Origin: a virus
Taxonomy: Duplodnaviria; Caudoviricetes
Strand: one strand, 5' to 3'
Virus record (IMG/VR): IMGVR_UViG_3300005573_000187
Coordinates: 1 to 36,702 of that record
DNA length: 36,702 nucleotides
Below, piece by piece: positions 14,575 through 35,491 of this stretch. The stretch's first letter is position 1; the number at the start of each line of letters is the position of its first letter. A program made the translations under genes and the position numbers. The notes beneath the pieces were generated by a model that made no database searches, was not told where the DNA came from, and saw nothing but the letters and a program-made list of their open reading frames with translations.

Positions 14575-14579
14575 TTTAT

Positions 14580-14963: not shown

Positions 14964-14970
14964 TTTTTTA

Positions 14971-19903: not shown

Positions 19904-21386
19904 AATTAAATTCTATATAGGTGATTTAATTTATCAAGGATTTACCAAAAAGTTCATTTTGGGAGAAGTTTATAACGGAAAAAAACTCTGGAAATTTAAA
20001 AGCAAAAATAAATTTTTGAATTTTATTTTAAACATAAATTCCACAATTTTCTTTTATGATTTAGATGACATAATTAGAACTATTTTTGAATGGTGTCAGG
20101 AAAAGAAAATCAAAATTAAAAAAAGTCCATTTTTGAATGGAGATAATAAAATTATAGAATGGCAAATTCAAAATACAATTTTTAGAGATTGTTTTGTTCT
20201 ATTCCAAGATGATTTAAAAAAATTAAAAGAAAGTTTTGAGATAAATTATCAAGGTAAAAGTAAATCAATTTTATTATATAAGATTTTAAAAAAATTTTAT
20301 GATTTTGTTGGTTGGGATTGTTTTGATAAAAAGTCAATCTCTGCCATAGCATTAGAAAAATTTAAAAAATTTGACAAAAGTAATTATGAAAAAATTATTG
20401 AATACCCAATCTATCCAGAAAAATTTGATTTTATTAAAAAGGCATTTTTCCCAGGTTATTATTATACTTTTAAATATAGATTTAAAAGTCAAAATAAAAC
20501 AATTATCAAAATTGACTGTAATTCATTTTATGGATCAATGATGCGAGATAATCTTTTTCCTTGGGGATATTTAATAGAGATTAAAACAAAAAAAGAAATT
20601 ATAGAACATTTAAAAAAAGGAGAATTAGGAATTATTGAGGCGAAAGTAAAAGTTCCCAAAAATTTGCCAATGGGATTTTTGCCTAAAAAAGGAAAGGAAA
20701 GAATTTATTATCCCATTGATAAAACTATTAAAGGTTTTTGGACAACTCCAGAAATAGAAAAAGCAAAAGAATTAGGATATAAGTTTGAATTTAAAAGAGG
20801 AATATTTTGGCCTTTCAAAAGTTATTTATTTAGACGATACATAAAGTATTTGGCAAAAATAAAAGAAAAATCAAAAGGAACAAAAAGAACTATTGCAAAA
20901 TATCTTTTAGTTTCATTTTATGGTAAGTTCGCCCAAAGGAGAGAACTTTCGTTTTTCAAATATGTTGAAAAGCCGATTTTTGGCAAAATGTATTTAGATA
21001 AAAATTTAACTTTAATGGAAGAAAAAAAATATATGAGAGCTCCATTTTCCCATCCAGAAATATCTATTTTTACTACTGCTTATTGTAGAATTTTTATGTG
21101 GGATTTTTGTGAAAAAATTGGTTGGGATAAAATTTATAGCATTATTAATGATTCTTTAATTTTAGAAGTTGATCAAAATAATTTTAAAAAAATTAAAAAT
21201 TTTTTACATCAAGATAAAGTTGGAAAGTTTAAAATAGAAGCTCAAATAAAAGAAGGAATTGTTTTGGCACACGGAGTTTATGCTTTGAAAACGATTGATG
21301 GAAGAGATATAGTAAAATATCAAGGAATTCCAGAAGAATTGAGAAATTTAAAAACATTTGAAGATTTTCAAAGGGTCTTGACATAA
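19893..21386 (+). CDS. Protein-primed-type family B DNA polymerase, degenerate
   Basis: Motif A IDCNSFYG, 'G.WTTPEI..A...GY', motif B K...VSFYGKFAQ, 'IFTTAYCR', motif C YSIINDS, 'GKFK.E', 'KYQGI'. Confidence 0.85.
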   Translation: MRNKIKFYIGDLIYQGFTKKFILGEVYNGKKLWKFKSKNKFLNFILNINSTIFFYDLDDIIRTIFEWCQEKKIKIKKSPFLNGDNKIIEWQIQNTIFRDCFVLFQDDLKKLKESFEINYQGKSKSILLYKILKKFYDFVGWDCFDKKSISAIALEKFKKFDKSNYEKIIEYPIYPEKFDFIKKAFFPGYYYTFKYRFKSQNKTIIKIDCNSFYGSMMRDNLFPWGYLIEIKTKKEIIEHLKKGELGIIEAKVKVPKNLPMGFLPKKGKERIYYPIDKTIKGFWTTPEIEKAKELGYKFEFKRGIFWPFKSYLFRRYIKYLAKIKEKSKGTKRTIAKYLLVSFYGKFAQRRELSFFKYVEKPIFGKMYLDKNLTLMEEKKYMRAPFSHPEISIFTTAYCRIFMWDFCEKIGWDKIYSIINDSLILEVDQNNFKKIKNFLHQDKVGKFKIEAQIKEGIVLAHGVYALKTIDGRDIVKYQGIPEELRNLKTFEDFQRVLT

Positions 21387-21416: not shown

Positions 21417-23552
21417 ATGAATTTAAAAAAGAAAATAAAAAATAAATACAAAATAATAAAAAAATATCCAGAAACTTCAAATTCTAAAACTGGCGAAATT
21501 GTTGATGGTATCGCAATATACCCAGAAGAAATAGAAAAAGTAGCAAAACAAATGGAAGTTCCAGTTCATTATGTAAAAGATGGAGTTCTTTTACACGAAT
21601 ATATTCATAAAGAATATCCAAAATTAAGTCCAAAAAAATTTTCAAAAAAATTTAAAGAATTATTTTTAAAACTTTATCCAGATATCAAAAAAGAATATTT
21701 CAAAAAAATTTTAGATTTTAGCGGACATTTTTCAAAAGCAGATATGGAAATTTATAATAAATATGGAATGGTAAAAGTTGTTAATCCTGAAAATGATAAT
21801 CCAAAAAATCCAAAATTTAAAGAAATTTCTATTGTAGGAAAAGTATTAAAAGAACCAGACCCTACAGAATTTTTAATCAAACAATATGAGGATTATGAAG
21901 GCAATATAACTTTTGATCTTTTTTATAAATATCCTTATCAAAAAAAATTTAAGCTTGCTTTAGAAAATATAAAATCATTTGATTTTTTAAAAGAATTTCT
22001 TTTAAAAAACCATAATAAAAACATAGAAGAAGTTCCTATAATTAAATATGTTTGGGGTAAAAGAGGAACAAGAGGTTTTGGTTGGATAAAAGAAGATAAT
22101 TTAAAAGGTCAAGAAAATAATCTACAAAATCCAAATATGGAAGAAGAAAAATTACCAAAATTTGAAAGTTATTATCAGTTAGAAAGTTATTTGAGAGGCA
22201 AAGGATATGGTCATATTTTAGATGAAATTTATGATTTGGAATTTAAAATAAGACCAGAAGGATGGAAAAGAAAAGATGTTGAAGATATGATACTTGAATG
22301 GTGGAATAGTGATTTAGAAGAATCTTTATTAAAATCTGAAAGAATAGGTTATTTTTTAATGTGGCATTTAAAAAAAGAAATAGTAAAAGAAACTAATCCA
22401 AGTAATCCAGGAAATCCAAAAAGAAAATCATTGAAAAAAGAAGCAATGGAGTGGTTTAGAAATATTGCTTACAATTATAATCACGATATAGATATGGATA
22501 TATTGAGTCAACTAATTGATATGGCGAAAGACCTTGGGTTAGATGTAGATAAAGTTCAGGATAAATGGCAATATTTTTATCCATCAGAAAGTTGGAATAG
22601 AATATCTGCAAAAGAGCTTTATAATTTTTATGAAGATATAATAGAAGAGGCAGAAAATAGACAAAAACTTTACGAAGAAGAAAATCTAATCAATCCAGAA
22701 AATCCAAATATGAATAAAAAAATAGTATATATCAAAAAACCTAATATATTTGAAACTGGTTATAAAATTGTATGGATAGACGAATATGGACATAAGCACT
22801 CCACTTGGGAAGATAGATTGACACTTGAACAATTAAAAAAAGAAGCTCGTCGAGAGGGTTATCAAGTAAGAGTAGTTGATGAAATTCCAGAAAATTTAAA
22901 TAATCCAAACAATCCAAATATGAAAAAAGAAAAATTAATTACTTATGATATTGAATATACTGATGTTTTTGAATCAACTCCCGATACTCCAGTTGCAGTT
23001 CAAATAACAGAAGAAAAAGAAAATGAACTTTATGAAAAATATGGTTATAACTGGTATTTTATAAGCGATGATTTAATTAAATATTTTGATGATGAAGAAG
23101 AAGAATGGAAAATAGCCAAAGTAGTTCCCGATAGAGTAATAACAGCAAAAGAAATGGAAAAAGAAAATCCAAGCAATCCAGAAACAAAAGGAATAAGTTG
23201 GCTTGAAATTTATGATTATTTTCAAGGAGAATATGAAAGAAAAACATTAGATTTAGTAGAATTTAAAAAGAAAGCTCCAAAGGATTTTTATGAAAGGTTT
23301 AAAAAATATTGGGAAGAAGAAACTGGAGAAGATTTAGAAGAGAGAATTAAAACTGAGGACCCACTTTATACAACTTTATACACATTAGACGCATTAAAAG
23401 AAGAATATTTGGAAGTAGCAGAAGAAAGCGGAGTTCCAGAACCATATATTTCTTATTTGGACGCTGAAGCAATGATAGAGGACGATAGAATGTCTGGGTA
23501 TCTTAATTACATAGAATTTGGCGGAGTAAAGGTTTATTATAGGACATATTAA
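21417..23552 (+). CDS. Polyvalent multi-domain protein: N-terminal HExxH peptidase-like domain, NPxNP-linked modules, C-terminal ArdA-like domain
   Basis: 'VLLHEYIH'; six NP-rich linkers; acidic tail 'VPEPYISYLDAEAMIEDDRMSG' resembling the ArdA C-terminus. Confidence 0.6.
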   Translation: MNLKKKIKNKYKIIKKYPETSNSKTGEIVDGIAIYPEEIEKVAKQMEVPVHYVKDGVLLHEYIHKEYPKLSPKKFSKKFKELFLKLYPDIKKEYFKKILDFSGHFSKADMEIYNKYGMVKVVNPENDNPKNPKFKEISIVGKVLKEPDPTEFLIKQYEDYEGNITFDLFYKYPYQKKFKLALENIKSFDFLKEFLLKNHNKNIEEVPIIKYVWGKRGTRGFGWIKEDNLKGQENNLQNPNMEEEKLPKFESYYQLESYLRGKGYGHILDEIYDLEFKIRPEGWKRKDVEDMILEWWNSDLEESLLKSERIGYFLMWHLKKEIVKETNPSNPGNPKRKSLKKEAMEWFRNIAYNYNHDIDMDILSQLIDMAKDLGLDVDKVQDKWQYFYPSESWNRISAKELYNFYEDIIEEAENRQKLYEEENLINPENPNMNKKIVYIKKPNIFETGYKIVWIDEYGHKHSTWEDRLTLEQLKKEARREGYQVRVVDEIPENLNNPNNPNMKKEKLITYDIEYTDVFESTPDTPVAVQITEEKENELYEKYGYNWYFISDDLIKYFDDEEEEWKIAKVVPDRVITAKEMEKENPSNPETKGISWLEIYDYFQGEYERKTLDLVEFKKKAPKDFYERFKKYWEEETGEDLEERIKTEDPLYTTLYTLDALKEEYLEVAEESGVPEPYISYLDAEAMIEDDRMSGYLNYIEFGGVKVYYRTY

Positions 23553-23557: not shown

Positions 23558-24202
23558 ATGCCAGAAGAGACCAAAAAAACCTCGCCAGTTGTAGCAGAGC
23601 TTAAAAGATTAAAAGAAAAGCTCAATAGTTTAAAATTGGAAAAGAAAGAAAAACCAGAAATTAAAGAAAAAATTGAAGAAAAGATAGAAGAAACAAAAGA
23701 AAAGATTGAAGAAGTTAAAAAAAGAAAAGGTAATTATCAGGGATGGAAAAAATATTGGGAGGAGGTTAGAGTAGGTAAGAGAAAAACCCCCTGGGAAATT
23801 CACAAAGAAAGAATGAAAGAAAAGGAAAAACAAAAAAAAGAAGAAGCAAAGCCAGAAAACAAAACCCTTGATAAAGAGACAGAAAAAATAAAAGAAAAAC
23901 TTGAAAAAATACCAGAGACAGAATTTCTCAAGTCAAAAGAAATAAATAAAGAAGCAAAAGAAGAAAAGTCAAAAGAGGGATTTGATCTAAAAAAGTTTTT
24001 TCAAAAAAATGATACTTGGATTTTGGTTTTAGGAATAGTGATTATAATTTGGGTTGGAATAAAATTTTTAAATGGAAGAGGTTCTTCATCTAATCAATCA
24101 ATTTCTGGAAACAAAAAAGAAAAAGAACCAATAATTGAATGGGAAGAAATTAATATTGCGCCTCCAGGAGCGCCACCAAGGATAATTAGAAGATTAAGAT
24201 AA
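23558..24202 (+). CDS. Charged coiled-coil protein with a single TM helix
   Basis: K/E-rich N-terminus; TM 'WILVLGIVIIIWVGI'. Confidence 0.75.
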   Translation: MPEETKKTSPVVAELKRLKEKLNSLKLEKKEKPEIKEKIEEKIEETKEKIEEVKKRKGNYQGWKKYWEEVRVGKRKTPWEIHKERMKEKEKQKKEEAKPENKTLDKETEKIKEKLEKIPETEFLKSKEINKEAKEEKSKEGFDLKKFFQKNDTWILVLGIVIIIWVGIKFLNGRGSSSNQSISGNKKEKEPIIEWEEINIAPPGAPPRIIRRLR

Positions 24203-24375
24203 TGATAAAATATTTTCACAAAGCCCCAATTGGACGATTAAAAGGAAAACCTGCTTATTGCATAATAAGCCATCGCACAGGTAAAGTTCTCTCGTGTTAT
24301 AAGACAAAAAGGTCGGCAAAAAAGGCTTTAAAAAGAATGAATTATTTTAAATATGCCAAGAAAAAGAAAAAATAA
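24202..24375 (+). CDS. Small basic protein (57 aa)
   Basis: Not in the ORF track. MIKYFHKAPIGRLKGKPAYCIISHRTGKVLSCYKTKRSAKKALKRMNYFKYAKKKKK; TAATG overlap with the upstream gene. Confidence 0.65.
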   Translation: MIKYFHKAPIGRLKGKPAYCIISHRTGKVLSCYKTKRSAKKALKRMNYFKYAKKKKK

Positions 24376-24898
24376 AAAACAAAAAGAAGAAACGGAGGAA
24401 GAAGTAGAAAAAAAAGTAGCTCAAATTGGAGAGTTTGTTGTTCCTAAAGAGGAAGTGCCAAAGGAAATTCCATTAGAAGCAGAAGAAATTCCAGAAGATA
24501 AGAAATCATCAGAAGAATCTTCATCTCCAAAAGAAATAAGTTCAGAAGAATTAAAAGAAAAATTAATTTCTTTGCTTTCAGAGGCATTTTCAAGAGGATT
24601 GTCGGAAGAAGAAAAAAAGAAATTTGTGGATAATTTTAAATTTTGGAACGAATTGCTTTTTAATTTTTTAGATATCGGAGATAATTTAGGATCTGTTTTG
24701 GAAAAGGCAAAAGTTCAATTAACTCCAGGAAAGGCAATAGCCATTTATGCTATTGGCACGGGTGCTTTGTTGTTTGCTTTAAGGCCAAATTTATTGAAAA
24801 AAAATGGCAAAAAAGAGAAACCAGAAGAACAAAAACCATCAGAAACTCCTCCTTCTCCAAAAGAGGAAAAGGTTGAAGAAAATCTAGAAAGTAAATAA
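24353..24898 (+). CDS. Acidic protein with one TM helix (virion-membrane / packaging-pore candidate)
   Basis: TM 'AIAIYAIGTGALLFALRP'; lies shortly upstream of the packaging ATPase. Confidence 0.65.
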   Translation: MPRKRKNKKQKEETEEEVEKKVAQIGEFVVPKEEVPKEIPLEAEEIPEDKKSSEESSSPKEISSEELKEKLISLLSEAFSRGLSEEEKKKFVDNFKFWNELLFNFLDIGDNLGSVLEKAKVQLTPGKAIAIYAIGTGALLFALRPNLLKKNGKKEKPEEQKPSETPPSPKEEKVEENLESK

Positions 24899-24913
24899 TT
24901 AAAGTAAATAATT

Positions 24914-25099
24914 ATGACTTTTGATTCTTTAAATCTATTCAAAAAGATTTTTGGTGAGAAATTAATTGATGAATTTAAGATTGAATTAGAAAAAATTAAA
25001 AGAAGTTGGATTTTTCATTTAGATGAAAATGAAAAATCACACAAAGAAATTTTAACAAAATTAGATGAAATCTCAAAAAAACTTGAAAAAAGAAAATAA
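24914..25099 (+). CDS. Small hypothetical protein
   Basis: 61-aa helical ORF in the operon. Confidence 0.55.
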   Translation: MTFDSLNLFKKIFGEKLIDEFKIELEKIKRSWIFHLDENEKSHKEILTKLDEISKKLEKRK

Positions 25100-25250
25100 A
25101 ATAGAAGAAATTGATTGGAACGAGTTAGAAATGATTGATAGAGATAAGGAAAATTTTGAAATTGGAGTTTATACAGGATTTATTATTGTTTTGCTCGCTC
25201 TTATTTTTGCTTATTCTCTTTGTTTAATTTTGTTATCAGAAATAAAATGA
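25065..25250 (+). CDS. Small membrane protein
   Basis: C-terminal TM helix; ATGA overlap with the ATPase start. Confidence 0.55.
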   Translation: MKSQKNLKKENKIEEIDWNELEMIDRDKENFEIGVYTGFIIVLLALIFAYSLCLILLSEIK

Positions 25251-25921
25251 TTTCAAACATCATTTGTTTTTTATGTGGAAAAACGGGGTGCGGTAAATCT
25301 TATACTTTGAATTATATTTTGAATCGTGAATACGAATTAAAGAGAAGAAAGGGGATTGTAGTTTTAGATTTGAGAGATGATCACCTTTCACTTTTAAAGC
25401 TTTCAGATTTTCATTATCTTAAAATAACTCCATTGATTTTTAATTATTACGATTTAGATTGGGCAGGAATTTTACAAAAATATCCTTATTTAATCATTTC
25501 ACCATATAAACTTTCAAGAGAAGAATACGAAAAATTGGCCGACGATATTGCTAAAGGAATAACAGATATTGGAAATAGAATTTATGTTTTAGAAGAGGCA
25601 GGAATGGCCTTTCCAGTTTATAGTGGAATTAGAAGAAATTTATCAGTTTTAATTACGACGGGGCGAAAATTAGGAATTGACTTTTATTTTACAAGTCAGA
25701 GACCATCTTTTGTTTCAACTGTTGCTGTTTCACAATGTAATGTTAGAATTTCTTTCGCAATGGATGATGTTAATGATATAAATAGGGTAAAAACTTATTT
25801 TGAAAATGTTGATATTTCAAAATTAAAAAGATTTGAATTTGTTGCAAGAAATGAATTTAATCACGAGCAAGTAATTGGAAATACAAATAATTTAAAAAAT
25901 TTGGATAAAATTTTATGGTAA
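25247..25921 (+). CDS. FtsK/HerA-superfamily genome-packaging ATPase (P9/A32-like)
   Basis: 224 aa from ATG 25247. Walker A GKTGCGKS at the N-terminus, 'VVLD', Walker B YVLEEA, 'TTGRKLGI' arginine finger and 'TSQRP' sensor; no extra domains. Confidence 0.87.
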   Translation: MISNIICFLCGKTGCGKSYTLNYILNREYELKRRKGIVVLDLRDDHLSLLKLSDFHYLKITPLIFNYYDLDWAGILQKYPYLIISPYKLSREEYEKLADDIAKGITDIGNRIYVLEEAGMAFPVYSGIRRNLSVLITTGRKLGIDFYFTSQRPSFVSTVAVSQCNVRISFAMDDVNDINRVKTYFENVDISKLKRFEFVARNEFNHEQVIGNTNNLKNLDKILW

Positions 25922-25926
25922 AGGTC

Positions 25927-25956
25927 TTGACAAAATTTTATGACAAAAATTATAAT
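25927..25956 (+). promoter_or_regulatory. Consensus sigma70 promoter
   Basis: TTGACA(25927)-N18-TATAAT(25951), 8 nt before ATG 25965. Confidence 0.7.
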
Positions 25957-25964
25957 AAAATAAT

Positions 25965-26261
25965 ATGACAAAAGATTTAGAAATCCTTGAGAGAGCTATT
26001 GGTGTGGCTGGAAGTATTATTGCCAGCGAACACTTTTTTTCTACCTTACTTTCAAGTCCTTGGACAACTCAAAAATTTTGTGATACTTTAGAAGAACAAG
26101 AATTAGTTAGAAGAATGTTATTTTTGGCAAGCGGAATTTCATTAGTTTTTGCTGGAGGAGTTAGTTATTTAATAAAGGATAAATACCCTATTATATTTAC
26201 ATTTATACTTTGTTTATTTTATATTGTCGTGTATGAAAAGTCATTGAAAAAAGAATTATAA
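25965..26261 (+). CDS. Small multi-TM membrane protein
   Basis: 98 aa with 2-3 hydrophobic segments. Confidence 0.7.
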   Translation: MTKDLEILERAIGVAGSIIASEHFFSTLLSSPWTTQKFCDTLEEQELVRRMLFLASGISLVFAGGVSYLIKDKYPIIFTFILCLFYIVVYEKSLKKEL

Positions 26262-26266
26262 AAACT

Positions 26267-26524
26267 ATGGATTTAAGTCCAGAAATTGTAAATTTAGGAG
26301 CATTAGCAATAGTTTTTATATTTTTTATTGACAAACTTTTTTTATATTTGAAAAACAAAAAAGATAAAAATTTTAATGATCTTATCATTAAAATTTTAAA
26401 TAATTTGAAAAATAATGATCTTTCAGATATCACAAAAAAAATTGATAGGTTAGAAGATAAAATAGATTTTAAATTTAATGAAGTAATTAGAATTTTAATT
26501 GAAATTAGAGAGAAAGTTAAATAA
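26267..26524 (+). CDS. TM plus coiled-coil protein (holin/BhlA-like architecture)
   Basis: N-terminal TM 'LGALAIVFIFFI' followed by a heptad-patterned segment. Confidence 0.55.
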   Translation: MDLSPEIVNLGALAIVFIFFIDKLFLYLKNKKDKNFNDLIIKILNNLKNNDLSDITKKIDRLEDKIDFKFNEVIRILIEIREKVK

Positions 26525-26627
26525 TGATGATAAAACAAATAAATTTTAGTAATTTAAAAATTATTAGATGAAGTGATATAATAAAGTTAGACGACTTTAA
26601 AAGGTCGTAAAATAAAAAAATAAAAAT

Positions 26628-26810
26628 ATGAAATTTTTAGAAGGACTTAAAACTTATATTGTAGGGGTTCTTATAGTAATTTTTGCGATTTGCTATGCTT
26701 TGAATTTAATTGATGGAGAAACTTTTTCCAAGTTGCTTGGGGTTTTTTTGGGTTTAGGAGCAATAACAATGAGAAAGGCAATTGCAAAATTAGAACCAGA
26801 AAAAAAATAG
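26628..26810 (+). CDS. Two-TM holin-like protein
   Basis: 'L.G.KTYIV...LG...MRKAI.K'; AGGTCG leader at 26602. Confidence 0.6.
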   Translation: MKFLEGLKTYIVGVLIVIFAICYALNLIDGETFSKLLGVFLGLGAITMRKAIAKLEPEKK

Positions 26811-26826
26811 AAAATTTTAGTTTTTG

Positions 26827-26863
26827 TGGGGTTGATATTGATACTATTTGTCATATCAGCCCC
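26827..26863 (+). terminator. Stem-loop, probable terminator
   Basis: GGGGTTGATA / TATCAGCCCC arms (one G-U) in the intergenic gap. Confidence 0.5.
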
Positions 26864-26957
26864 TTATAATAAATTCTAAAAATTTTGAGTTCTTGACAAA
26901 GATTGTAAAAAAATAAAATAAAAAAAGGTAAAATTTAATAAAAAAATAAATAAATTT

Positions 26958-27176
26958 ATGACAAAATATAAATATGTAAAATGTAGATTTTGTGGAAAAA
27001 AAATTCGTTATAAAAGTCCTCCAAAATATTTAACTAGGAATGGAATAGATCCTACTCGTTTAAGAGCAGTTAGACAACATTATAAAAAAGCACATCCAAA
27101 AAAATGGAAGGTAATTGTTAAAAAAGCAATAAAAACAAGAAAAAAAAGGAAAGAAAAATTGAAAAGATTGAAATAG
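26958..27176 (+). CDS. Basic C2H2-type Zn-finger protein
   Basis: CRFCG ... HYKKAH. Confidence 0.7.
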   Translation: MTKYKYVKCRFCGKKIRYKSPPKYLTRNGIDPTRLRAVRQHYKKAHPKKWKVIVKKAIKTRKKRKEKLKRLK

Positions 27177-27179
27177 GTC

Positions 27180-27207
27180 TTGACAGAAATTTAAAAAAAA
27201 TTAAAAT
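27180..27207 (+). promoter_or_regulatory. Promoter of the jelly-roll capsid operon
   Basis: TTGACA(27180)-N16-TAAAAT(27202), followed by hairpin CCCTCAC/GTGAGGG (27231-27257) and AGGTCG at 27261. Confidence 0.7.
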
Positions 27208-27300
27208 AAGATAATGAACACACAAAAAAACCCTCACTTTCAAAATTATCGTGAGGGAAAAGGTCGTAAAAAAATAAAAAATTGAAATAATAGAAAAAAT

Positions 27301-27591
27301 ATGGCAGATGTTTTAAAAGAAGGATGGAGAGAAACCTTTAGAGTTGCTACTCTTGTTAAAATTTTAGTTGCTTTTATTAGTTATGCTGTTGCAAGATTGA
27401 TTCATACTTATGTAGTAAGTAAGATATCTACGCTTCAAAAATTTCCAGAGGTTTCTGACTTATTAGTGATGGTTGTTGGAGCTGGATTTACCAGAGGAGA
27501 TACCCAAGATGCAGTTTTAATTGGTGCTGGTTTATCATTGTTAGATAATCTTGCTACAAGATTTGGTGCTACTTGGTTAAAGGTCAGATAA
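27301..27591 (+). CDS. Hydrophobic virion membrane protein candidate
   Basis: 96 aa, three hydrophobic Gly/Ala-rich helices, immediately upstream of the paired capsid genes. Confidence 0.65.
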   Translation: MADVLKEGWRETFRVATLVKILVAFISYAVARLIHTYVVSKISTLQKFPEVSDLLVMVVGAGFTRGDTQDAVLIGAGLSLLDNLATRFGATWLKVR

Positions 27592-27619
27592 ATTTAATTT
27601 CAATTGAAAGTGTAAAATT

Positions 27620-28144
27620 ATGAACAGAGAGACAATTCACCAAAATTATTCTTATGTAACGAAACAAGCAAATGTTGCTAATGCCGATAGTCCAATAGCA
27701 ATTCTTACTATTCCTGCTGGAAGAATTTATAGATTAGCTCACGAAACTCCTTTGGTATTGAAACTTTATACTTCAGGCGGAACTGAAATTTCAAGAGCTT
27801 CAAAAGTTTATCTTGCTTGGCAAGCGCCAGTTGGTGAAACAAAATATCAAGTTGGGAGAACAATGACTTATGGAGTATTCGCAGATCTTTCAGTTGACCA
27901 GCAATATGACATCAATACGCAAGCAAAGAGAATGATTGAAATTACCGATGAAGAGATTGTTAGATATCAGAATAGACAAGAAAATTTAATAGATGGATTG
28001 GGTGCAGATTATAAAATTTTACTAATGCTGAATTCTCCTGATGTGGTAAGTTGGACACAATCTGGCACTCAATTTAACTTTGATGTGTTTGTTTTGACTG
28101 CTCAAGAATTTGAGGGAGAAAAGAAGGGTAGAAAGGTCGCTTAA
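27620..28144 (+). CDS. Small single-jelly-roll major capsid protein (P23-77 VP16-like)
   Basis: 174 aa, beta-rich. 'TIPAG.....PLVLKLYTSGGTEISRASKVYLA' and 'Y..F.DLS..QQ.D' match my recollection of VP16 (PVILKLYDTGGNQLP..TDVFLA; Y..YYDLTEAQLRD); paired with a larger beta protein. Confidence 0.82.
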   Translation: MNRETIHQNYSYVTKQANVANADSPIAILTIPAGRIYRLAHETPLVLKLYTSGGTEISRASKVYLAWQAPVGETKYQVGRTMTYGVFADLSVDQQYDINTQAKRMIEITDEEIVRYQNRQENLIDGLGADYKILLMLNSPDVVSWTQSGTQFNFDVFVLTAQEFEGEKKGRKVA

Positions 28145-28185
28145 TTTTAGGCCAATCTTTAAAATTAGATTGGTGTGAGAAAACT

Positions 28186-28935
28186 ATGGAAAAACAAATT
28201 ATTAGACAATCAGGAATTCTTACAAATACGGATTTTACTATTACTCCGAATCAAGTTGGATATGAAAGCGAGATAGCCACTTATAAAGTTCCACAAAACA
28301 GAGTTGTAGAACTTCCTGATAAGCTTATTAGATTAAAATTGATGACAAAGGAAACTTTCTCCTTTACCTCTCCCACTAATGCAACAGAGAAAAGTTGCGT
28401 TTTGACTTATCCAATTGTTCAAGATCCATTGGTATCTTTAGTTCGCAATGCTGTAATTGTTGTTCAAAGAAGTGCTGGAGGAAGTCCTACAAATGTTGAA
28501 TGGACAAATTTCACTGTTACCTTGCCAAACACTGTAACGATTAAGGGATTGACTCAAAGCACAGATTATGTCTATGATATCTTTTATCTCTTTTCAGATG
28601 GAAGCGTAAATATAACGATTGTTTCTGATGATGCAACCGTTAGAACAAAAATTTTAGAAAGTTCAATCGTAGGAATTAATCAATTGAATCAATTAGATTC
28701 AAGGAAAGGATTAAGATATGGAAAGATAAATATGATTCTTCCTGATAGGTGGCAAATTCAAGTTAGGGTTATAACTAGTGCTTCAATTGTTTTATATGAT
28801 CCAGTTGCAGATAGCGGGGCAAAAAGCAGGTTTGCAAGACATTCTTATATTGAATTGCCAGTAGATATTTCCAGTATTTTTCAATGGGGAGAAGAAGTTA
28901 GAGATATTGCTAAAGAAAGAGCTATGATTTACTAA
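28186..28935 (+). CDS. Large single-jelly-roll major capsid protein (P23-77 VP17-like)
   Basis: 249 aa, beta-rich. 'NTDF', 'IATYKVP', 'IFYLFSDG', 'NQ', 'HSYIELPV' correspond in order to recalled VP17 motifs (NEDF, LAQMKTP, IYYVHGDG, DQ, HYIQI). Confidence 0.75.
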   Translation: MEKQIIRQSGILTNTDFTITPNQVGYESEIATYKVPQNRVVELPDKLIRLKLMTKETFSFTSPTNATEKSCVLTYPIVQDPLVSLVRNAVIVVQRSAGGSPTNVEWTNFTVTLPNTVTIKGLTQSTDYVYDIFYLFSDGSVNITIVSDDATVRTKILESSIVGINQLNQLDSRKGLRYGKINMILPDRWQIQVRVITSASIVLYDPVADSGAKSRFARHSYIELPVDISSIFQWGEEVRDIAKERAMIY

Positions 28936-29013
28936 TTTTAACAAAGTTGGATTTAGGTTCTGAAAGCTGAAGATAAATATGAGAGCTGAAGATTTAATAA
29001 AAAAAATAAATAA

Positions 29014-29059
29014 AAGGCAAGTTCAACCACTTCCTCCTTGTAAGTGAGTAACTTGCCTT
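29014..29059 (+). terminator. Stem-loop after the capsid genes
   Basis: AAGGCAAGTT / AACTTGCCTT arms followed by ATTTT, about 10 nt before the next ATG. Confidence 0.55.
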
Positions 29060-29069
29060 ATTTTAAAAT

Positions 29070-29726
29070 ATGACAGAACAACAATGGGTAGGATGGGTAA
29101 GAAAATGGTTTTCTCTTACACCTCAACAATTAATAGCATTAACAGCAAGGGCAGAAGCCCAAGAAGATTGGGTTCGTATTGGAAATAGTGCCTTACAAGC
29201 AGTAATCAATGTTATTCATAATAGAAGAATTCATCCACCACAATACTTTTACAACAATCCACAAATTTTAGGAGCAAGTAGAATTTTACAAGAAACGAGT
29301 TCGCCTTATCACGCAATAATTTTAGGATATCAACAATTTAGTTGTTATTTGTCAGAATATTCAGAAATTACAGAACATTATACAGATCCAGATACTTTCA
29401 ATTATTATTTGAAAAATAATAAATGCTTGCAAGCGTGTATGAGATTAGTAGATGCATTAGTCAATGGAACTTTAATAGATATTACAGGAGGAGCAGATCA
29501 TTATGTAAATCCAAGAATAACTCAACCCTCAATCGTAGAAAATTTTAATAGAACAATGGTTTATAGAACAGATATAGGACAGCATAGATTTTGGTCAGCA
29601 CCGCCTCACTATTGGGAAAATCCACAAAGGTTTAAACCTCCTGAATATGTAGCAGGAAAACCACAAACAGAATTATTAAGAGTTATAGTTCCAGCTACTG
29701 GAATTATAATGGGAGGAGGGGTATAA
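29070..29726 (+). CDS. Cell wall hydrolase (SleB / Hydrolase_2 family)
   Basis: 'ALTARAEA', 'AVINVIHNR', 'QFSC', 'DITGGADHY.NP', 'IGQHRF'. Confidence 0.88.
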   Translation: MTEQQWVGWVRKWFSLTPQQLIALTARAEAQEDWVRIGNSALQAVINVIHNRRIHPPQYFYNNPQILGASRILQETSSPYHAIILGYQQFSCYLSEYSEITEHYTDPDTFNYYLKNNKCLQACMRLVDALVNGTLIDITGGADHYVNPRITQPSIVENFNRTMVYRTDIGQHRFWSAPPHYWENPQRFKPPEYVAGKPQTELLRVIVPATGIIMGGGV

Positions 29727-29799
29727 TAAATATGACAAAAATTTTTAAGACAAAGGTTGTAAAAATATTTTAAAGGTCAAAATAAAACAAAATAAAATA

Positions 29800-30804
29800 A
29801 TGGAAATAAGTTCATATCCCGCACAAGTTACCGCTAGTTCTTATGGAGCAAGGTTTAGAACAGGACCTGCAACTACCTATTCAATAAAGTATTCTTTTGG
29901 AGCTGGGTATAAATTTACGGTTGTAGGTTATGTCAATGGAGAAATAGTAGATGGTGAAAATAGATGGTGGAAAGTTTCAGATGGAACTTATGTTTGGGTA
30001 GGGGCAACGATAGAAAAACCAGCAACGATTTCAATTCCATCTCCGACTCCTATATCAACTCCCACTCCCACTCCCACTCCCACTCCTACTCCTACACCTA
30101 CTCCTACACCTACTCCTACACTTACTCCTACACCCACTCCCATCCCTCAAGAATATTGGTTATATGGAGGAGTGATTGATAACAGCACAAGAAATCCTCT
30201 TTCAGAAGTTAAGATAAATGCTTTTGGAATTGCCTCTACTACAACAAATTCAAATGGATATTTTGAGATTAAATTTACTCAAGAATATTCTGGCCAGGTA
30301 ACAGCAAGTAAAGATGGATATAAAACAGCAACCCAATATGTTCAACTTGGTTATCCATCAAAAGCAATACTTTTTTATCTAGATCCTATTGTGACTTCAG
30401 AATATCCAAAGCAAGTAACTCTTGGTTGGAATGCCAATGTTAGAACAGCACCAAATAGACAAGCAATAATTGTTAAGGTTTTGCCAGCAGGTTCTACATT
30501 TACTGCAGTAGCAATGATTCAAGGAGAAAATGTTGATGGCAATGCAAATTGGTATAAAACATCAGAAGGTTATTACATTTGGCAAGGAGCAGAAACAGAA
30601 AAAGAAGCAGAAATAGAAAAAGGGAATAAAGATAAAATTCCATCGCTTGAAAATTATGTTTGTCCTTGGTGTGATCAAAAATTTGGGACGAAAGAACAAC
30701 TTACTGAACATATGGAAAAATGTCCTAAAAAACCAATAACGAATAGTTGGATCATTCCAGCACTTATTATTGGTGGTTTGATTTTCTTAATACGAAAAAA
30801 ATAA
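29800..30804 (+). CDS. Membrane-anchored protein with two SH3b-like domains, PT linker, beta-sandwich and Zn finger
   Basis: Two repeats 'R..P......G..FT....GE.VDG...W.K...G.Y.W.G'; (PT)n linker; 'VTASKDGY' carboxypeptidase-regulatory-like domain; CPWC..H...C; C-terminal TM. Confidence 0.75.
   Translation: MEISSYPAQVTASSYGARFRTGPATTYSIKYSFGAGYKFTVVGYVNGEIVDGENRWWKVSDGTYVWVGATIEKPATISIPSPTPISTPTPTPTPTPTPTPTPTPTPTLTPTPTPIPQEYWLYGGVIDNSTRNPLSEVKINAFGIASTTTNSNGYFEIKFTQEYSGQVTASKDGYKTATQYVQLGYPSKAILFYLDPIVTSEYPKQVTLGWNANVRTAPNRQAIIVKVLPAGSTFTAVAMIQGENVDGNANWYKTSEGYYIWQGAETEKEAEIEKGNKDKIPSLENYVCPWCDQKFGTKEQLTEHMEKCPKKPITNSWIIPALIIGGLIFLIRKK
30040..30147 (+). repeat. Pro-Thr coding microsatellite (6-nt units)
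   Basis: CCCACT / CCTACA / CCTACT runs encoding (PT)n. Confidence 0.9.
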
Positions 30805-30805
30805 T

Positions 30806-31573
30806 ATGAGAGATTTTGTTAAACAGATTCAATCTGAAAGTTTTAAACTTGGGGGAAAAATTTTACAGTTTTTTTCGGGTTGCATTAATAGGGCAGAAAA
30901 TTTTATGAAAACTCAATGGAATGTTGATAAAGATGGAGAAAAAAATGGAGAATTGGATAACGCAACATCAGTTGAAATATTTTACATAATTTATAAGTTT
31001 CCTGATATTCTTGAAAAGCGAAATAGATATAGATTAAAAGAAGACGAAATAATTTCTGAAATCAATTATCTTTTAAATCACGAGGGGATAAAAGATTGGA
31101 AAATAAAAAAAGTTAGTGATTGGGTTTTTAATATAAGCACAATCCATTTTGGAGCAGTAAGACCAAAACCAACAATCACATTAGGAAAATCATCTTTGTG
31201 GGAAACAACCCAGATTGTAGGACAGTTATTGCTTTTAAAAGGATTTTTCATTACGGCAGTTGTAATTATTAGAAATGGAGTTTGGTTATATTACGCTTGG
31301 CACGATAATCCAACATCAACTGAAATTTTTGAAATTATGAATTTAATGAATTTTTATGAGAGAGAAAATGTAATTGATGATGTAGTAGAAAAAACGATTA
31401 TGAATATAGCAAAAGATGAGCAAAAAGGAGGATTTGTTGAAAAAATAGAAACTTGGGCAAAGATTGTTTTGGTAATTTTAGTTGTTTTGACAATAACTTA
31501 TATTTTGAGTGAATGGAGAAAAACTGGAGAATTTTTTAAAAAAGGTCTTGATATTTTAGACAAAAAAGATTAA
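30806..31573 (+). CDS. Hypothetical membrane-anchored protein
   Basis: 255 aa with a C-terminal TM helix. Confidence 0.65.
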   Translation: MRDFVKQIQSESFKLGGKILQFFSGCINRAENFMKTQWNVDKDGEKNGELDNATSVEIFYIIYKFPDILEKRNRYRLKEDEIISEINYLLNHEGIKDWKIKKVSDWVFNISTIHFGAVRPKPTITLGKSSLWETTQIVGQLLLLKGFFITAVVIIRNGVWLYYAWHDNPTSTEIFEIMNLMNFYERENVIDDVVEKTIMNIAKDEQKGGFVEKIETWAKIVLVILVVLTITYILSEWRKTGEFFKKGLDILDKKD

Positions 31574-31970: not shown

Positions 31971-32123
31971 ATGGAAAAAGAGGAAAAAGATATAAAAGTT
32001 TCTATCTACGATCCTTCAATTAATGCTTTTAGGGAAGTTCCTTTGGAATTGGCAGAAAAGTTTGTAGAAGAGGCAAAAAAAGTAGAAAAGGTTATAGAAA
32101 AAATAAAAAAAGAAGAAAAATAA
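31971..32123 (+). CDS. Small protein (50 aa)
   Basis: Not in the ORF track. MEKEEKDIKVSIYDPSINAFREVPLELAEKFVEEAKKVEKVIEKIKKEEK, preceded by an AAAGGTCTT leader variant. Confidence 0.6.
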   Translation: MEKEEKDIKVSIYDPSINAFREVPLELAEKFVEEAKKVEKVIEKIKKEEK

Positions 32124-32124
32124 T

Positions 32125-32661
32125 ATGGTTCAAGAAATTGCCAAAGGAAAAGATAATGTAGGAGTTGCTCAATTAAATAAATTAATAGAAAAGTTTACTG
32201 AAAAAGCAGTTTGGACTATTAGGAAATTCAAAAATAGAGAAGATTTTGAAAATAATAAACCTTATGAAATAAGTAAAATTGAAGGAAACATTCTTTTAAA
32301 CTCTGGAATAAATGAACTCTTTACAATCATTTGCTCTTCTGGTGGAACAAAATGGGATGCTACAAATGCTTATTTAGGAGTGGGAGATAGTAATACTACG
32401 GAAAATGCTACTCAAACTGATTTGTTAGGAACTAACAAAACTTACAAAGGAATGGTTTCTGGTTATCCTACTTATGGAACAAATCAAAAAGCAACTTGGA
32501 AAGCTCAATTTACAGAGAACGAGGCAAATTATGCTTGGCAAGAATTTGTTTTAAGAAATGGGGCTAGTTCTGGAACTTGCTTAAACAGAAAAGTTTATGA
32601 TCAAGGAACAAAAACTTCAGGACAAATTTGGGAATTAACTTTAGAGATTTCTTTAAGCTAA
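32125..32661 (+). CDS. Fibre/spike-associated beta protein, paralog 1
   Basis: 'N.LLN.G', 'YLGVGDS......TQTDL', 'F...EAN..W.E', 'K.S...W.LT.EI'; similar to 34899..35432. Confidence 0.6.
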   Translation: MVQEIAKGKDNVGVAQLNKLIEKFTEKAVWTIRKFKNREDFENNKPYEISKIEGNILLNSGINELFTIICSSGGTKWDATNAYLGVGDSNTTENATQTDLLGTNKTYKGMVSGYPTYGTNQKATWKAQFTENEANYAWQEFVLRNGASSGTCLNRKVYDQGTKTSGQIWELTLEISLS

Positions 32662-32708
32662 AAGCACAAATGAAATAGTTTGAAAATGTGCTTTTAGTAT
32701 AAATTTTG
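32659..32708 (+). repeat. 50-bp direct repeat, copy 1
   Basis: 45/50 identical to 35430-35479; this copy forms a hairpin (TAAAAGCACA/TGTGCTTTTA). Confidence 0.85.
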
Positions 32709-32712
32709 AATT

Positions 32713-34548
32713 ATGGCTTGGCTCCAAAATTGGACATACCGCAAAAAAATAACAATTTCAGGTTCAAGCGGTGCTGGAACGAATTACCAAGTTCTTTTAA
32801 AAGTTGGAGAAAGTTCAGGTGCTACTGGATACGATTTTCATTTAGAAGGACATTCAGCAAATTTTCCCTCTGGCAAAAATCAGGGTGGTGATATAAGATT
32901 TACCGCCGATGATGGAACCACTTTATTAGATTTTTGGGTAGAAAATGTAAGTGGAACTTCTCCAAATAGAGTTGCTCATATCTGGGTTAAGGTTTCAGCG
33001 GATTTAGGAACTGACAAGTATATTTATTGCTATTATGGAAATCCAAACGCTACAAATGCGAGCAATGGAGATAATACATTTTTGTTCTTTGATGATTTTG
33101 ATGATAACTCAATAGATACAAATAAATGGTATGAGGAAAATTATGGCGGGGCTGATTGTGTTGAACAAAATCAAAGAATGGAACTTACAGGAACTTCAGC
33201 AAATTCGTGGGCCCAACTTGTTTCGCAAAATACAATAAACATACAAAATACCGAACTAAAAGTAAGATTGAGAAATGCGGTGGCTGATAGAGTTGATTTA
33301 TATCTATCTTTAACCAAACCAGCATCTGGTGGTGGTCATATATATGATCAGCCAAATTATTATCGCTCATTTTTAGAGAAATATGAGGGACTTTATTTTA
33401 GGGTGGCTCGCAAAGTAAATGGTAGCGGAACTCTTCTTTATCAAGGAAGTTATCTTTCAAACGATGAAGATATAAAAGTTAGAGTCGCTGGAAATACAAT
33501 ATATTTTTTTGAACAAGACACTCAAAGATATTCAGAAACTTACCAACTTTCAAGTTATAATTGCTATATTGTATTTAATGGTGGTTTTGTTTCAGGCACT
33601 ACTGGAACTGATTGGGTAGATGAATTGCGTGTCCGCAAATATGTTTCCCCCGAACCAGCATTCAGTTCGGCAGATGCGGAGGAAAAATTAATAATACTTT
33701 CAGATTCTGGTTCAGGAATAGATATAATTGGAACAAAAGAAAATTTTTCATTAGCAGATTATGGAAATGGGCTAGATGTAATTACATTAAAACAATTGAC
33801 AGCAATTACAATTTCGGATTTAGGATTAGGAACAGAAACTGGATTAGAAGTAAAACCAACAAAATTAGTTCAAGATTTAGGGACTGGCCAAGATTTAGTT
33901 TTTCCAATTCAAGCAAAATTAACTCTTTCTGATTTAGGAAGCGGAGTAGATACAATTGGAATTTTATTAAAGTTTTTAATCCAAGATTCTGGAATAGGAA
34001 GGGAAACTTTATTAATTGGAATATCAAATTTAGTTCAGGATTCAGGAATTGGGATTGAAAAATTAGGAATTTGGGAAAGTATAAAAGTTTCAGATTCAGG
34101 AATAGGAAGTGATTTAATTTGCTCTATAATTTTAAATTTATTAGAAGAAATTGGAATAGGAAAAGAGTTTATTTACAAAAAAATTACTTGGAAACCTTCT
34201 ATTATAGATGATGAAGATTTCTCAAAACCAATAATTGTTCAAGAATACAGAACAGTTGTTCCTTTGCCTCTTTGGATAGATAAGCTAGTAGAGGCAGGAG
34301 AAACATCAGATGAGATAGATGTTTCAGAACTTGGTTCTTTTGGAGCTTTAATTGAAGTTAAAAGTCAAACAAGTGTAGAAATTCAAATTGAAACTGCTTG
34401 GGGATGGGAAACAATTGATACAATAGATTTTGATGATCCAAATGGTGGAAGCCAATTTTATCCATTTTGGTCAATTCAATTTGAAAAAGTTAGATTATTA
34501 TTTACAAAGGCTACAACTGTCTCCTTACAATTATATTGTAGAACTTAA
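32713..34548 (+). CDS. DUF2341-like / lectin-like adhesin with a repeat stalk
   Basis: 'WL.NW.YRKKITI', 'DIRFT..DG.TLL.FWVE', 'WVKV', 'YYGNP', 'FFDDF'; about nine DxGxGxD/E repeats in the C-terminal half. Confidence 0.75.
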   Translation: MAWLQNWTYRKKITISGSSGAGTNYQVLLKVGESSGATGYDFHLEGHSANFPSGKNQGGDIRFTADDGTTLLDFWVENVSGTSPNRVAHIWVKVSADLGTDKYIYCYYGNPNATNASNGDNTFLFFDDFDDNSIDTNKWYEENYGGADCVEQNQRMELTGTSANSWAQLVSQNTINIQNTELKVRLRNAVADRVDLYLSLTKPASGGGHIYDQPNYYRSFLEKYEGLYFRVARKVNGSGTLLYQGSYLSNDEDIKVRVAGNTIYFFEQDTQRYSETYQLSSYNCYIVFNGGFVSGTTGTDWVDELRVRKYVSPEPAFSSADAEEKLIILSDSGSGIDIIGTKENFSLADYGNGLDVITLKQLTAITISDLGLGTETGLEVKPTKLVQDLGTGQDLVFPIQAKLTLSDLGSGVDTIGILLKFLIQDSGIGRETLLIGISNLVQDSGIGIEKLGIWESIKVSDSGIGSDLICSIILNLLEEIGIGKEFIYKKITWKPSIIDDEDFSKPIIVQEYRTVVPLPLWIDKLVEAGETSDEIDVSELGSFGALIEVKSQTSVEIQIETAWGWETIDTIDFDDPNGGSQFYPFWSIQFEKVRLLFTKATTVSLQLYCRT

Positions 34549-34669
34549 ACTATGGCAACTCAAATTTTTATTTTTGATTCTGGACAAGAAAAAAAATTAG
34601 TTATAAAATTATCTTGGTATGTCATTAAGTATAAAAGGTCGTTAATTTGATAGATTTTATGTTAAATAA

Positions 34670-34894: not shown

Positions 34895-34898
34895 AACT

Positions 34899-35479: not shown

Positions 35480-35491
35480 GATTTTAAAAAT

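Follow-up and report, generated by a model that had tools for sequence, protein, structure and literature searches.

The 36,702-nucleotide stretch of viral DNA analysed here (the window) almost certainly carries a jelly-roll virus module of the Halopanivirales type (realm Singelaviria), and this module very probably represents a family-level lineage of its own. On balance, we favour a tailless dsDNA virus with a virion module of this type and a likely Patescibacteria host as the best explanation of the whole. The genes of the module all lie on the + strand in the ORF list of the window, and GC content is 0.30 over positions 19001–36702. A sequence-only reading of this DNA had described the module between 23558 and 31573. 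The virus overruns this range on both sides, with a polymerase gene upstream (19893–21386), which that reading did not mention, and fibre-type genes downstream to the window end.

The range begins with five small conserved ORFs (214, 57, 181, 61 and 61 aa; 23558..25250), two of which have a predicted transmembrane helix; they likely encode internal-membrane or DNA-binding virion proteins. The proposed gene order of ATPase, membrane proteins, major capsid proteins (MCPs), muralytic enzyme and SH3b protein was recovered, except that the ATPase gene is the sixth ORF of the range rather than the first. It is followed by a block (25965..27176) encoding small membrane proteins of 98, 85 and 60 aa (ORF starts 25965, 26267 and 26628), which are holin candidates for which transmembrane helices are predicted, together with a basic Cys/His protein of 72 aa (ORF start 26958). 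At this position, relatives have an amidase or a peptidoglycan-binding protein. The hydrophobic 96-aa protein encoded at 27301..27591 has the position and size of SH1/HCIV-1 VP12 and HJIV1 ORF21. No significant match was obtained with the VP12, VP15 and ORF21 sequences, and its position makes it a candidate major membrane protein and VP12/VP15 counterpart. Downstream of the MCP genes lie a cell-wall hydrolase gene (Hydrolase_2, 29070..29726; PF07486, E 4.8e-7), whose product is likely virion-associated, and a gene for an SH3b–Pro/Thr linker–β-sandwich–SH3b protein with a C-terminal membrane helix (29800..30804; PF08239, E 5.2e-9, PF13620 and hydropathy). These matches and the GC content bear out the description of the region as AT-rich DNA encoding peptidoglycan-directed proteins. 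Next come a two-helix membrane protein of 255 aa (30806..31573; homologues in 5/23 related loci), a conserved 119-aa protein ending at 31941 (4/23 loci) and a variable fibre/spike region (31971..36700) with a DUF2341 protein, a gp80-like protein and a fibre-like protein whose ORF continues past the window end. Among the 23 related loci, many of which are short, the 249-aa MCP gene is directly 3′ of the 174-aa MCP gene in 22, the 96-aa gene is immediately 5′ of the latter in 18, and the hydrolase gene comes next after the large MCP gene in 13. Such conservation of gene order indicates that the module is not due to chance. An Rfam search of 21500–36702 gave no match and a tRNA search found none.

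The capsid genes carry the identification. The small MCP (174 aa, 27620..28144) is a VP16/VP7-like single jelly roll according to its predicted model, with weak sequence matches that span just 40–65 residues: PF22024 (VP16-like) at E 7.7e-4, below the cut-off, and 3zmo (VP16) at E 0.0035 in a PDB sequence search. The model has a pLDDT of 68.7 and is weak between residues 74 and 124 (pLDDT <50). Among the Foldseek matches listed, all those at E≤0.001 are capsid chains of HCIV-1, HHIV-2, SH1 or P23-77, and superposition on 6h9c_D (HCIV-1) gave a Z of 12.6 and an rmsd of 3.6 over 142 aligned residues. The large MCP (249 aa, 28186..28935) is better defined (pLDDT 89.5) and VP17/VP4-like, with a second β-barrel stacked in the model. 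All seven Foldseek matches at E≤0.001 are VP17/VP4 (best E 2.5e-12, TM 0.63), and the model superimposes on 3zmn_A (P23-77 VP17) with a Z of 18.1 and an rmsd of 3.9 over 212 aligned residues. The atlas's own model of this protein has the VP17 cluster in its first row (TM 0.64). Moreover, hhalign gave 97–98% to VP17 and the HJIV1 large MCP, and in a reference set of 17 proteins a 47-sequence large-MCP profile matched HJIV1 (E 2e-24), VP17 (2e-19) and also HCIV-1 and SH1 VP4. The large MCP had no match in 50,697 phage records and weak FN3/LRR noise alone in the PDB sequence search; a BFVD fold search gave no match at E≤0.001. Both proteins thus have the structure and profile matches by which the claim of single-jelly-roll MCPs was to be judged. 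As in Halopanivirales, two MCPs each present a vertical single jelly roll in the predicted models, and the small-then-large gene order is the one known from that order. Their pI is 5.7–6.6, compared with 4.1–4.4 for capsid proteins of Sphaerolipoviridae.

The packaging ATPase (224 aa, 25247..25921) is of the FtsK-HerA type, with a P-loop Walker A motif (GKTGCGKS), a Walker B motif (VLEEA) and an arginine finger (GRK). Its kinship to the ATPases of the order is seen in profile comparisons (E 4e-25 to SH1, 4e-9 to P23-77) and in a tblastn search of the 50,697 phage records, where 13/13 matches are Halopanivirales ATPases, P23-77 being absent from them. It is highly improbable that the locus is no virion module at all and consists of cellular or conjugative jelly-roll proteins next to a HerA/VirB4-type ATPase. 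The ATPase does draw HerA and TraG profile matches, and in searches of Pfam, NCBIfam and PDB sequences it best matches cellular HerA proteins, over partial stretches. However, it is far shorter than the matched HerA entries (560–700 aa), its phage matches are exclusively Halopanivirales packaging ATPases, the adjacent gene pair matches two different MCP classes in the small-then-large order, and no conjugation gene was found among the 52 window proteins. The sequence-only reading had made affinity to VirB4/TraG or HerA a test of itself, and it came through this test.

In the MCP tree, the window and 16 relatives form one clade with support 100/100 that includes none of the four reference MCPs. 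The phylogeny called for earlier thus confirmed a separate clade, but the trees, which have long branches, did not settle the deep branching, which family is closest or whether the proteins group with P23-77, to which identity is 17–20%. Best profile matches differ between proteins, with the large MCP closest to the simulovirus HJIV1, the small MCP to VP16 and the ATPase to SH1/HCIV-1. The earlier term "P23-77-like" therefore holds for the fold but not for family affinity, and we rejected it as a family label given 17–28% identity to all three ICTV families and the separate clade. The lineage shares with Matsushitaviridae (Thermus phages P23-77 and IN93) a bacterial host with peptidoglycan enzymes, the ATPase–membrane protein–small MCP–large MCP order, the best structural match of the large MCP (Z 18.1) and the best sequence match of the small MCP. 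Unlike P23-77, the yardstick of that family, which has a high-GC (0.68) circle of about 17 kb with strong Shine-Dalgarno use, a Thermus host and no annotated polymerase, it has a GC content of 0.30, few Shine-Dalgarno sites, a DNA polymerase gene and related contigs of up to 28 kb; MCP identity is 17–18% and ATPase identity 20%. With Sphaerolipoviridae (SH1, HCIV-1, HHIV-2, PH1) it shares the membrane protein–small MCP–large MCP order and its best ATPase matches (25–28% identity). Those viruses have genomes of about 30 kb that are thought to be protein-primed, haloarchaeal hosts, 67–68% GC and no canonical DNA polymerase gene (PMC12643093), whereas peptidoglycan enzymes, σ70 promoters, low GC and a polymerase gene are found here; MCP identity is just 20–24% and their capsid proteins are acidic. 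Two single-jelly-roll MCPs are also common to Simuloviridae (SNJ1, HJIV1, NVIV1) and the proposed "Nanicoviridae" and "Halicoviridae", whose hosts are archaea. Simuloviruses are described, in the available part of the source, as 16–19-kb circles with a rolling-circle RepA (PMC12642351); no match to their HUH RepA was found among the 52 window proteins.

The lineage probably replicates by protein priming. A protein-primed-type family B DNA polymerase (pPolB) of 497 aa is encoded upstream of the module (19893..21386, + strand; PF03175, E 2.4e-28), and the linkage of pPolB to the capsid genes, based on the window and three relatives, is found in 3/3 relatives' loci long enough to show it. One of these (L003) alone has 20.5 kb of collinear genes. 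In an alignment with three relatives (L003, L008 and L019), the window enzyme is degenerate, ExoI–III and about 45 C-terminal residues being missing while the two catalytic aspartates are kept. L003 and L008 retain the PF03175 core, polymerase motifs A–C and the 3′–5′ exonuclease motifs. Motif C, compared with the canonical pPolB motifs, reads IINDS or IMADS in all four aligned rows. The genome descriptions consulted for the three Halopanivirales families list no protein-primed polymerase. The lowest E values among the matches listed for the lineage's pPolB are to betatectiviruses (Bam35, GIL16, AP50; 25–27% identity), reaching 3e-29 to Bam35-like tectiviruses for L008. Betatectiviruses share the internal membrane and an FtsK-HerA ATPase, but have a single double-jelly-roll MCP and genomes of about 15 kb, and belong to a different realm. 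Overlapping the pPolB start, a gene at 19085..19903 (+ strand) encodes a basic 272-aa protein (pI 10.0) with weak helix-turn-helix matches, at the same position in L003 and L008; by its position it is a candidate terminal protein. Between pPolB and the module lies a 711-aa modular, polyvalent-protein-like product (21417..23552, + strand), whose domains are connected by Asn-Pro linkers and are shuffled among relatives; its last module is weakly ArdA-like (E 0.023, below the cut-off). Neither a genome end nor an inverted terminal repeat was seen for the jelly-roll virus, and relatives' contigs run several kb upstream of pPolB, so a linear, protein-primed genome of about 25–34 kb is put as likely only.

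The left part of the window belongs to a separate podovirus (TerS, TerL, portal, HK97 capsid, adaptor, early genes and amidase; 92..15243), and positions 1–15,250 show the same gene signals as the jelly-roll part. It resembles by description the CPR-infecting Roizmanbacteria podoviruses, which in the available part of their report come from hot springs and have genomes of about 31 kb with 33% GC (PMC6509639). Fibre and lysis genes common to the jelly-roll and podovirus groups are 63–77% identical, and the N-terminus of the window fibre has 63–68% identity to podovirus fibres. Such identities indicate that genes have recently passed between two realms within a single host. A single virus with both capsid types as its normal state was rejected. 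TerL, portal and HK97 capsid homologues occur in 0/23 jelly-roll loci (flanks ≤10 kb), and the capsid pair, ATPase and pPolB are missing from 4/4 fully read podovirus relatives.

The same absences weigh against the window's jelly-roll genome being a passenger joined to the podovirus (as a co-integrate, nested element or tandem proviruses) and copied with it. This reading is plausible though somewhat short of even, would explain the stripped polymerase, and concerns the window's copy; it can coexist with the best explanation. Two runs, X1 and X2, have exact-match contigs that tile the region, and those of X2 meet at 15225–15254 with 30 bases in common, which suggests a shared repeat, presumably too short to have misled an assembler with a longer k. 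However, this interval is unbridged among the 24 matches listed, and both runs may be source samples of the window. Depth is alike on the two sides in X1 (24–33 vs 26–31) but halves at the junction in X2 (17–18 to 9–11). In run X3, the podovirus variant (72–82x) and the pPolB variant (76–84x) have similar depth, while the podovirus contig follows the window as far as 15252, with its remaining 1,252 letters unplaced among the matches listed. A physical join is further favoured by positions 15216–15343, where the podovirus promoter block 8325–8458 recurs in inverted form (82%), and passenger status by the identity between the window and L003, which is 46% for pPolB and 92% for the ATPase. Alternatively, the join at about 15,250 may be an assembly chimera.

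That the host is a bacterium other than a Thermus, as first proposed, is well supported by GC content (0.30 vs 0.68 in P23-77) and by Shine-Dalgarno-like sites, present at 2/51 hand-picked starts compared with 26/35 genes in P23-77. From its gene signals, we consider a Patescibacteria (CPR) host to be the likely one, because peptidoglycan enzymes, σ70 promoters (TTGACA-N16-18-TA[AT]AAT, n=9), near-absent Shine-Dalgarno sites and AAAGGTCG leaders occur together. The AAAGGTCG motif (for example 26600..26607, + strand), which we take to be a sign of Patescibacteria, is present in 18 copies in the window (0.51 expected), five of these in 19001–36702, and in 48 copies in 18/23 loci of relatives, where 2.2 would be expected and every copy lies on the gene strand. 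The anti-Shine-Dalgarno is missing in a Parcubacteria subgroup, according to the available part of one study (PMC9297842).

It is possible, though rather unlikely, that the same virus infects another low-GC bacterium (Lithacetigenota, Bacillota, Bacteroidota or another hot-spring lineage). The only cellular records with relatives are a 5.3-kb contig binned in a Ca. Lithacetigena MAG (L024) and a contig of ≤2.5 kb labelled Syntrophomonadaceae/Bacillota that encodes a distant VP17-like protein (P0121); neither is labelled Patescibacteria. The link of the motif to Patescibacteria, moreover, was checked against 13 genomes of the Lithacetigena phylum alone. Yet in 13/13 of these, AAAAGGTCG falls under its reversed control (13 vs 49 in the MAG concerned), while the viral contig of that MAG has three AAAGGTCG, which fits mis-binning, and the capsid gene occurs in 1/4 genomes of the class. 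Lithacetigena as host from binning alone was rejected. Bacillota have strong Shine-Dalgarno sites and Bacteroidota non-TTGACA promoters, which argues against either. Other searches were uninformative on the host: PF22024 was found in 0/13 Lithacetigena-phylum genomes and 0/14 controls, a 20-base motif scan gave three loci, and TerL and HK97 capsid had no CPR-labelled match among annotated phages. Looking up the clusters of 30 proteins yielded a single organism name.

In the favoured tailless virus of Patescibacteria, the small and large single-jelly-roll proteins from neighbouring genes would pair around an internal lipid membrane. By analogy with the known order, whose MCP heterodimers form a pseudo T=28 lattice, heterodimer capsomers would be held on the membrane vesicle by small transmembrane proteins, and vertex fibres would mediate attachment. 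The FtsK-HerA ATPase would pump in the likely linear, protein-primed genome. Their domains suggest that, during entry, the SH3b protein and hydrolase would attach to peptidoglycan and open it locally, and that a holin/amidase pair would cause lysis.

To our knowledge, two-MCP single-jelly-roll tailless viruses have been cultured solely from salt-loving archaea and Thermus. Metagenomic members have already been reported for the archaea Nanohaloarchaeota and Thermococcales, so the host-range extension claimed earlier stands on the bacterial side but not for archaea. Singelaviria is the smallest jelly-roll-based virus realm, with Thermus as the host of its bacterial members in culture. Undersampling of the realm is evident from this separate lineage of at least 23 loci and its more distant large-MCP relatives (41 matches with clustering at 50%, of which about 30 have the length of a capsid protein). 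In IMG/VR, no relative came up in scans with the small MCP, with the alignments of the two MCPs or with that of pPolB, nor in scans with the SSB-like and methylase genes, in a record set from which near-identical entries may be missing. Standard virus catalogues may therefore miss the lineage. The capsid type and the pPolB gene together give a handle on the copying of linear sphaerolipovirus genomes, known without such a gene. CPR phages known in 2019 were Podoviridae and Siphoviridae, with none tailless in the available part of that report (PMC6509639). More speculatively, and with low confidence, a protein-primed single-jelly-roll family on Patescibacteria would comprise the first tailless internal-membrane CPR viruses and the first bacterial Singelaviria outside Deinococcota, exchanging genes for fibres and lysis with podoviruses from a different realm; the copy in this window would be stably co-integrated with such a podovirus and have a streamlined polymerase that lacks proofreading. 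Patescibacteria cells are thought incapable of their own lipid synthesis. If they are the hosts, this would be a membrane-containing virus of such cells, parallel to the "Nanicoviridae", whose hosts are ultra-small symbiotic archaea in the available part of the source (10.1101/2025.02.15.638363), and the AAAGGTCG leader would be a practical marker for CPR viruses.

The window, an entire virus record of 36,702 bases, is identical in sequence to metagenome contig Ga0078972_1004683, and 0.96, 0.89 and 0.39 of the words of its stretch 17001-27000 recur in three hot-spring sequencing runs, the first two of which may be its source samples. The open reading frames and gene order of the jelly-roll module (23558..31573) are as the sequence-only reading had stated. 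Pfam recognised a cell-wall hydrolase at E 4.8e-7 and an SH3b protein at E 5.2e-9; the 174-aa protein, the small major capsid protein (MCP; 27620..28144), gave a weak VP16-like match (E 7.7e-4) that lies below the cut-off. Protein searches returned 22 close relatives of the small MCP and 17 matches to the large MCP (249 aa, 28186..28935). Metagenome and genome scans provided 23 related loci, the window's own being excluded and the near-copies L002 and L003 both being counted. The small MCP gene directly precedes the large one in 22 of them, a 96-aa hydrophobic gene lies directly 5′ of the small MCP gene in 18 and a hydrolase gene is found 3′ of the large MCP gene in 13, while the ATPase gene is present in all seven loci long enough to reach its position. 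The Halopanivirales-type module is thus real and conserved. The hairpin at 29014-29060 (z -4.9), which lies between the genes for the large MCP and the hydrolase, is likely a terminator or attenuator; z falls below -4 at this place in 5 of 14 loci.

The 249-aa protein was modelled confidently (pLDDT 89.5). All seven Foldseek matches of the model at E<=0.001 are P23-77 VP17 or VP4 of HCIV-1, HHIV-2 or SH1, the best having an E-value of 2.5e-12 and a TM score of 0.63. An independent structural aligner superimposed the model on VP17 over 212 residues (Z 18.1, rmsd 3.9) and on HCIV-1 VP4 with a Z of 15.8, compared to at most 6.9 for unrelated folds. The model of the 174-aa protein is weaker (pLDDT 68.7, residues 74-124 being poor). 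It has 22 Foldseek matches at E<=0.001, and among the matches listed all are capsid chains of HCIV-1, HHIV-2, SH1 or P23-77; it reaches Z 12.6 with HCIV-1 and 10.4 with VP16, the next fold being at 6.1. Aligned large MCPs found 41 matches among 1.84 billion representatives, about 10 of which are long repeat proteins or fragments. A 47-sequence profile made from the capsid-length matches was compared with a set of 17 proteins and recovered each of the four reference large MCPs (E 2e-24 to 4e-15). Predicted structures of both proteins and profile matches of the large one therefore support their proposed identity as a pair of single-jelly-roll MCPs. About 20 more distant VP17-like proteins (P0089-P0120, 218-255 aa) fall outside both the window's clade and the ICTV families, and are further undescribed single-jelly-roll lineages.

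The 224-aa ATPase (25247..25921) carries Walker A, Walker B and arginine-finger motifs. Family libraries place cellular HerA at the top for this protein, these matches being to partial stretches of far longer proteins. By contrast, its 13 matches among 50,697 phage records all belong to SH1, HHIV-2, PH1, HCIV-1, HJIV1 or NVIV1, so that sequence comparison favours a Halopanivirales ATPase over a cellular HerA.

The MCPs share 17-24% global identity with the references, and the ATPase 20-28%. In a tree of 38 large-MCP sequences from the searches and four references, the window falls in a 17-member clade (support 100/100) that contains no reference; the ATPase tree (22 proteins and four references) likewise separates the lineage, with weak support (82/89). 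The module behaves like that of a Halopanivirales virus and shows two testable hallmarks of the order, the predicted pair of single-jelly-roll MCPs and the related ATPase; for each of the three families, some of the features examined are absent from the lineage. The earlier description of the module as P23-77-like holds for the fold, but not for a special affinity to P23-77. The literature covered on Halopanivirales, Singelaviria, Matsushitaviridae and tailless CPR viruses, which included few subscription papers or ICTV proposals, gives no account of this lineage, and it mentions (PMC12451622, PMC10848233, PMC8328091, PMC6509639, PMC6563490, PMC12934983 and 10.1101/2025.02.15.638363 being among the papers covered) no bacterial member outside Thermus-related hosts. 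In two further sources, one fumarole vOTU is sister to Hukuchivirus (10.64898/2026.04.06.716669) and groundwater vOTUs carry the label Laserviricetes without detail (10.1101/2025.05.30.656956).

Upstream of the module lie a basic 272-aa gene (19085..19903), a terminal-protein candidate, and a family B DNA polymerase gene of the protein-primed type (pPolB, 19893-21386). Of the related loci, L003, L008 and L019 extend into this region, and all three carry pPolB. The exonuclease motifs are retained in L003 and L008; the window copy has lost ExoI and ExoII, has a 19-aa deletion at ExoIII and misses about 45 C-terminal residues, all in frame. A 90%-identical variant that aligns without gaps over 19725-21127 occurs in hot-spring run X3 at 76-84x, which suggests that the stripped form is being maintained. 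Among the matches listed for the L008 polymerase, the lowest E-values belong to Bam35-like tectiviruses. We infer a linear genome for the jelly-roll virus; none of the sequences analysed shows an end of it. A strong hairpin (18976-19075, -52.4 kcal/mol) is located just 5′ of the terminal-protein candidate, and L008 has a smaller one in the corresponding position. Sphaerolipoviruses have terminal proteins and no canonical polymerase gene, according to PMC12643093 and PMC5332951; simuloviruses replicate by RepA (PMC12642351), and P23-77 has no annotated polymerase. Main texts on pPolB with single jelly rolls describe no Halopanivirales member with this polymerase; the supplements of papers on Thermococcales, nanohaloarchaea and groundwater may contain single-jelly-roll viruses with pPolB or members of the lineage. 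The lineage is apparently an undescribed one of family level, with a protein-primed polymerase gene.

Between pPolB and the module lies a 711-aa modular protein (21417-23552; L003, 2124-4013; L008, 3136-5577), in which modules of 60-130 aa are connected by Asn-Pro linkers; Met frequently comes next after a linker. The three copies have the first and last modules in common, the middle ones being shuffled. In L003 and L008 the first module bears an HExxH motif; the last module is weakly ArdA-like. The protein resembles the polyvalent proteins described in PMC5512222, and is perhaps self-cleaved at the linkers. Further left, a DNA methyltransferase gene (15351-18728) is interrupted by an opposite-strand NUMOD3-HNH gene (15536-16108) and has an intein-like insert in its C-terminal part.

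The left part of the window (1-15,243) is a podovirus with an SU10-type portal and an HK97 capsid. Its TerL is carried by 17 IMG/VR loci, including a provirus and two of 29 kb that are rated complete, and the podovirus relative G005 has its early genes in the window's order as far as the ORF whose end is at 15,243. A conserved 480-500-aa protein without Pfam match lies 3′ of the large putative ejection proteins in podovirus relatives (L054, 7425-8870; L056, 8978-10477). The window's YdcK beta-solenoid gene is duplicated in tandem (9383-10642, 627-base spacing), giving two identical proteins; this is either a real duplication or an assembly artefact. At both ends (1-91 and 35477-36702) the contig is broken within or at a fibre gene; the two genes are homologous, and each virus has one of them. 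The jelly-roll MCP, ATPase and pPolB are absent from all four podovirus relatives analysed in full.

Contigs of runs X1, X2 and X3 were compared over 10001-21300. All three runs bridge the interval between the ORF at 18725-18970 and the polymerase operon. Positions 15225-15254, on the other hand, are bridged by none of the 24 pieces listed (there being 1,327 further pieces); read depth falls by half there in X2, though not in X1, and the podovirus contig of X3 departs from the window at 15,252. An assembly chimera at this point is somewhat more probable than a co-integrate of the two viruses. A divergent promoter block occurs as two inverted copies, 82% identical, at 15216-15343, by the podovirus boundary, and at 8325-8458.

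The two groups share a peptidoglycan-binding protein (68%, L003 and G005), an amidase (77%, jelly-roll locus L004 and the window's left part) and fibre N-termini (63-68%), and their tetranucleotide profiles correlate at 0.79, compared to 0.24-0.29 with P23-77; this is consistent with one host for both. The leader motif AAAGGTCG, which we take to be a motif of Parcubacteria, has 18 copies in the window, where 0.51 would be expected, and 48 over 18 of the 23 related loci, always on the gene strand. Of the 27 genes right of 15,300, 6 have its relaxed form at most 50 bases 5′ of them, as do 11 of the 24 to the left. As the podovirus has the same motif and genes free of Shine-Dalgarno (SD) sites, its host group is likely the same. 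A simple 4-mer test places SD-like sites before 2 of 51 gene starts picked by hand, compared to 26 of 35 for P23-77; the anti-SD is found in just 48% of Parcubacteria, according to PMC9297842. Peptidoglycan enzymes and nine sigma-70-type promoters indicate that the host is a bacterium, as in the sequence-only reading; as to which bacterium, the gene signals point, with reasonable probability, to Patescibacteria. Binning of relatives would name other taxa: a Ca. Lithacetigena MAG includes one relative, and a Syntrophomonadaceae MAG another, distant one. However, AAAGGTCG is rarer than its control in all 13 genomes of Ca. Lithacetigena's phylum.

MCP heterodimers over a membrane have been shown for HCIV-1 and HHIV-2 (PMC6414509). 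By analogy, the small and large MCPs would form heterodimers tiling a membrane vesicle that bears the small transmembrane proteins, and the ATPase would package the genome into the procapsid. Fibres common with the podovirus would bind the same cell surface; the SH3b protein and the hydrolase would grip and open the peptidoglycan of the host or of a larger cell on which it lives. The 711-aa protein may act early against restriction, pPolB with a terminal protein would replicate the genome, and a holin with an amidase or peptidase would release the progeny. Predicted folds, homologies and gene linkage are the basis of this scheme; the remainder we infer. The jelly-roll module would thus represent an apparently undescribed, family-level lineage of Halopanivirales type, equipped with pPolB and likely infecting Patescibacteria.
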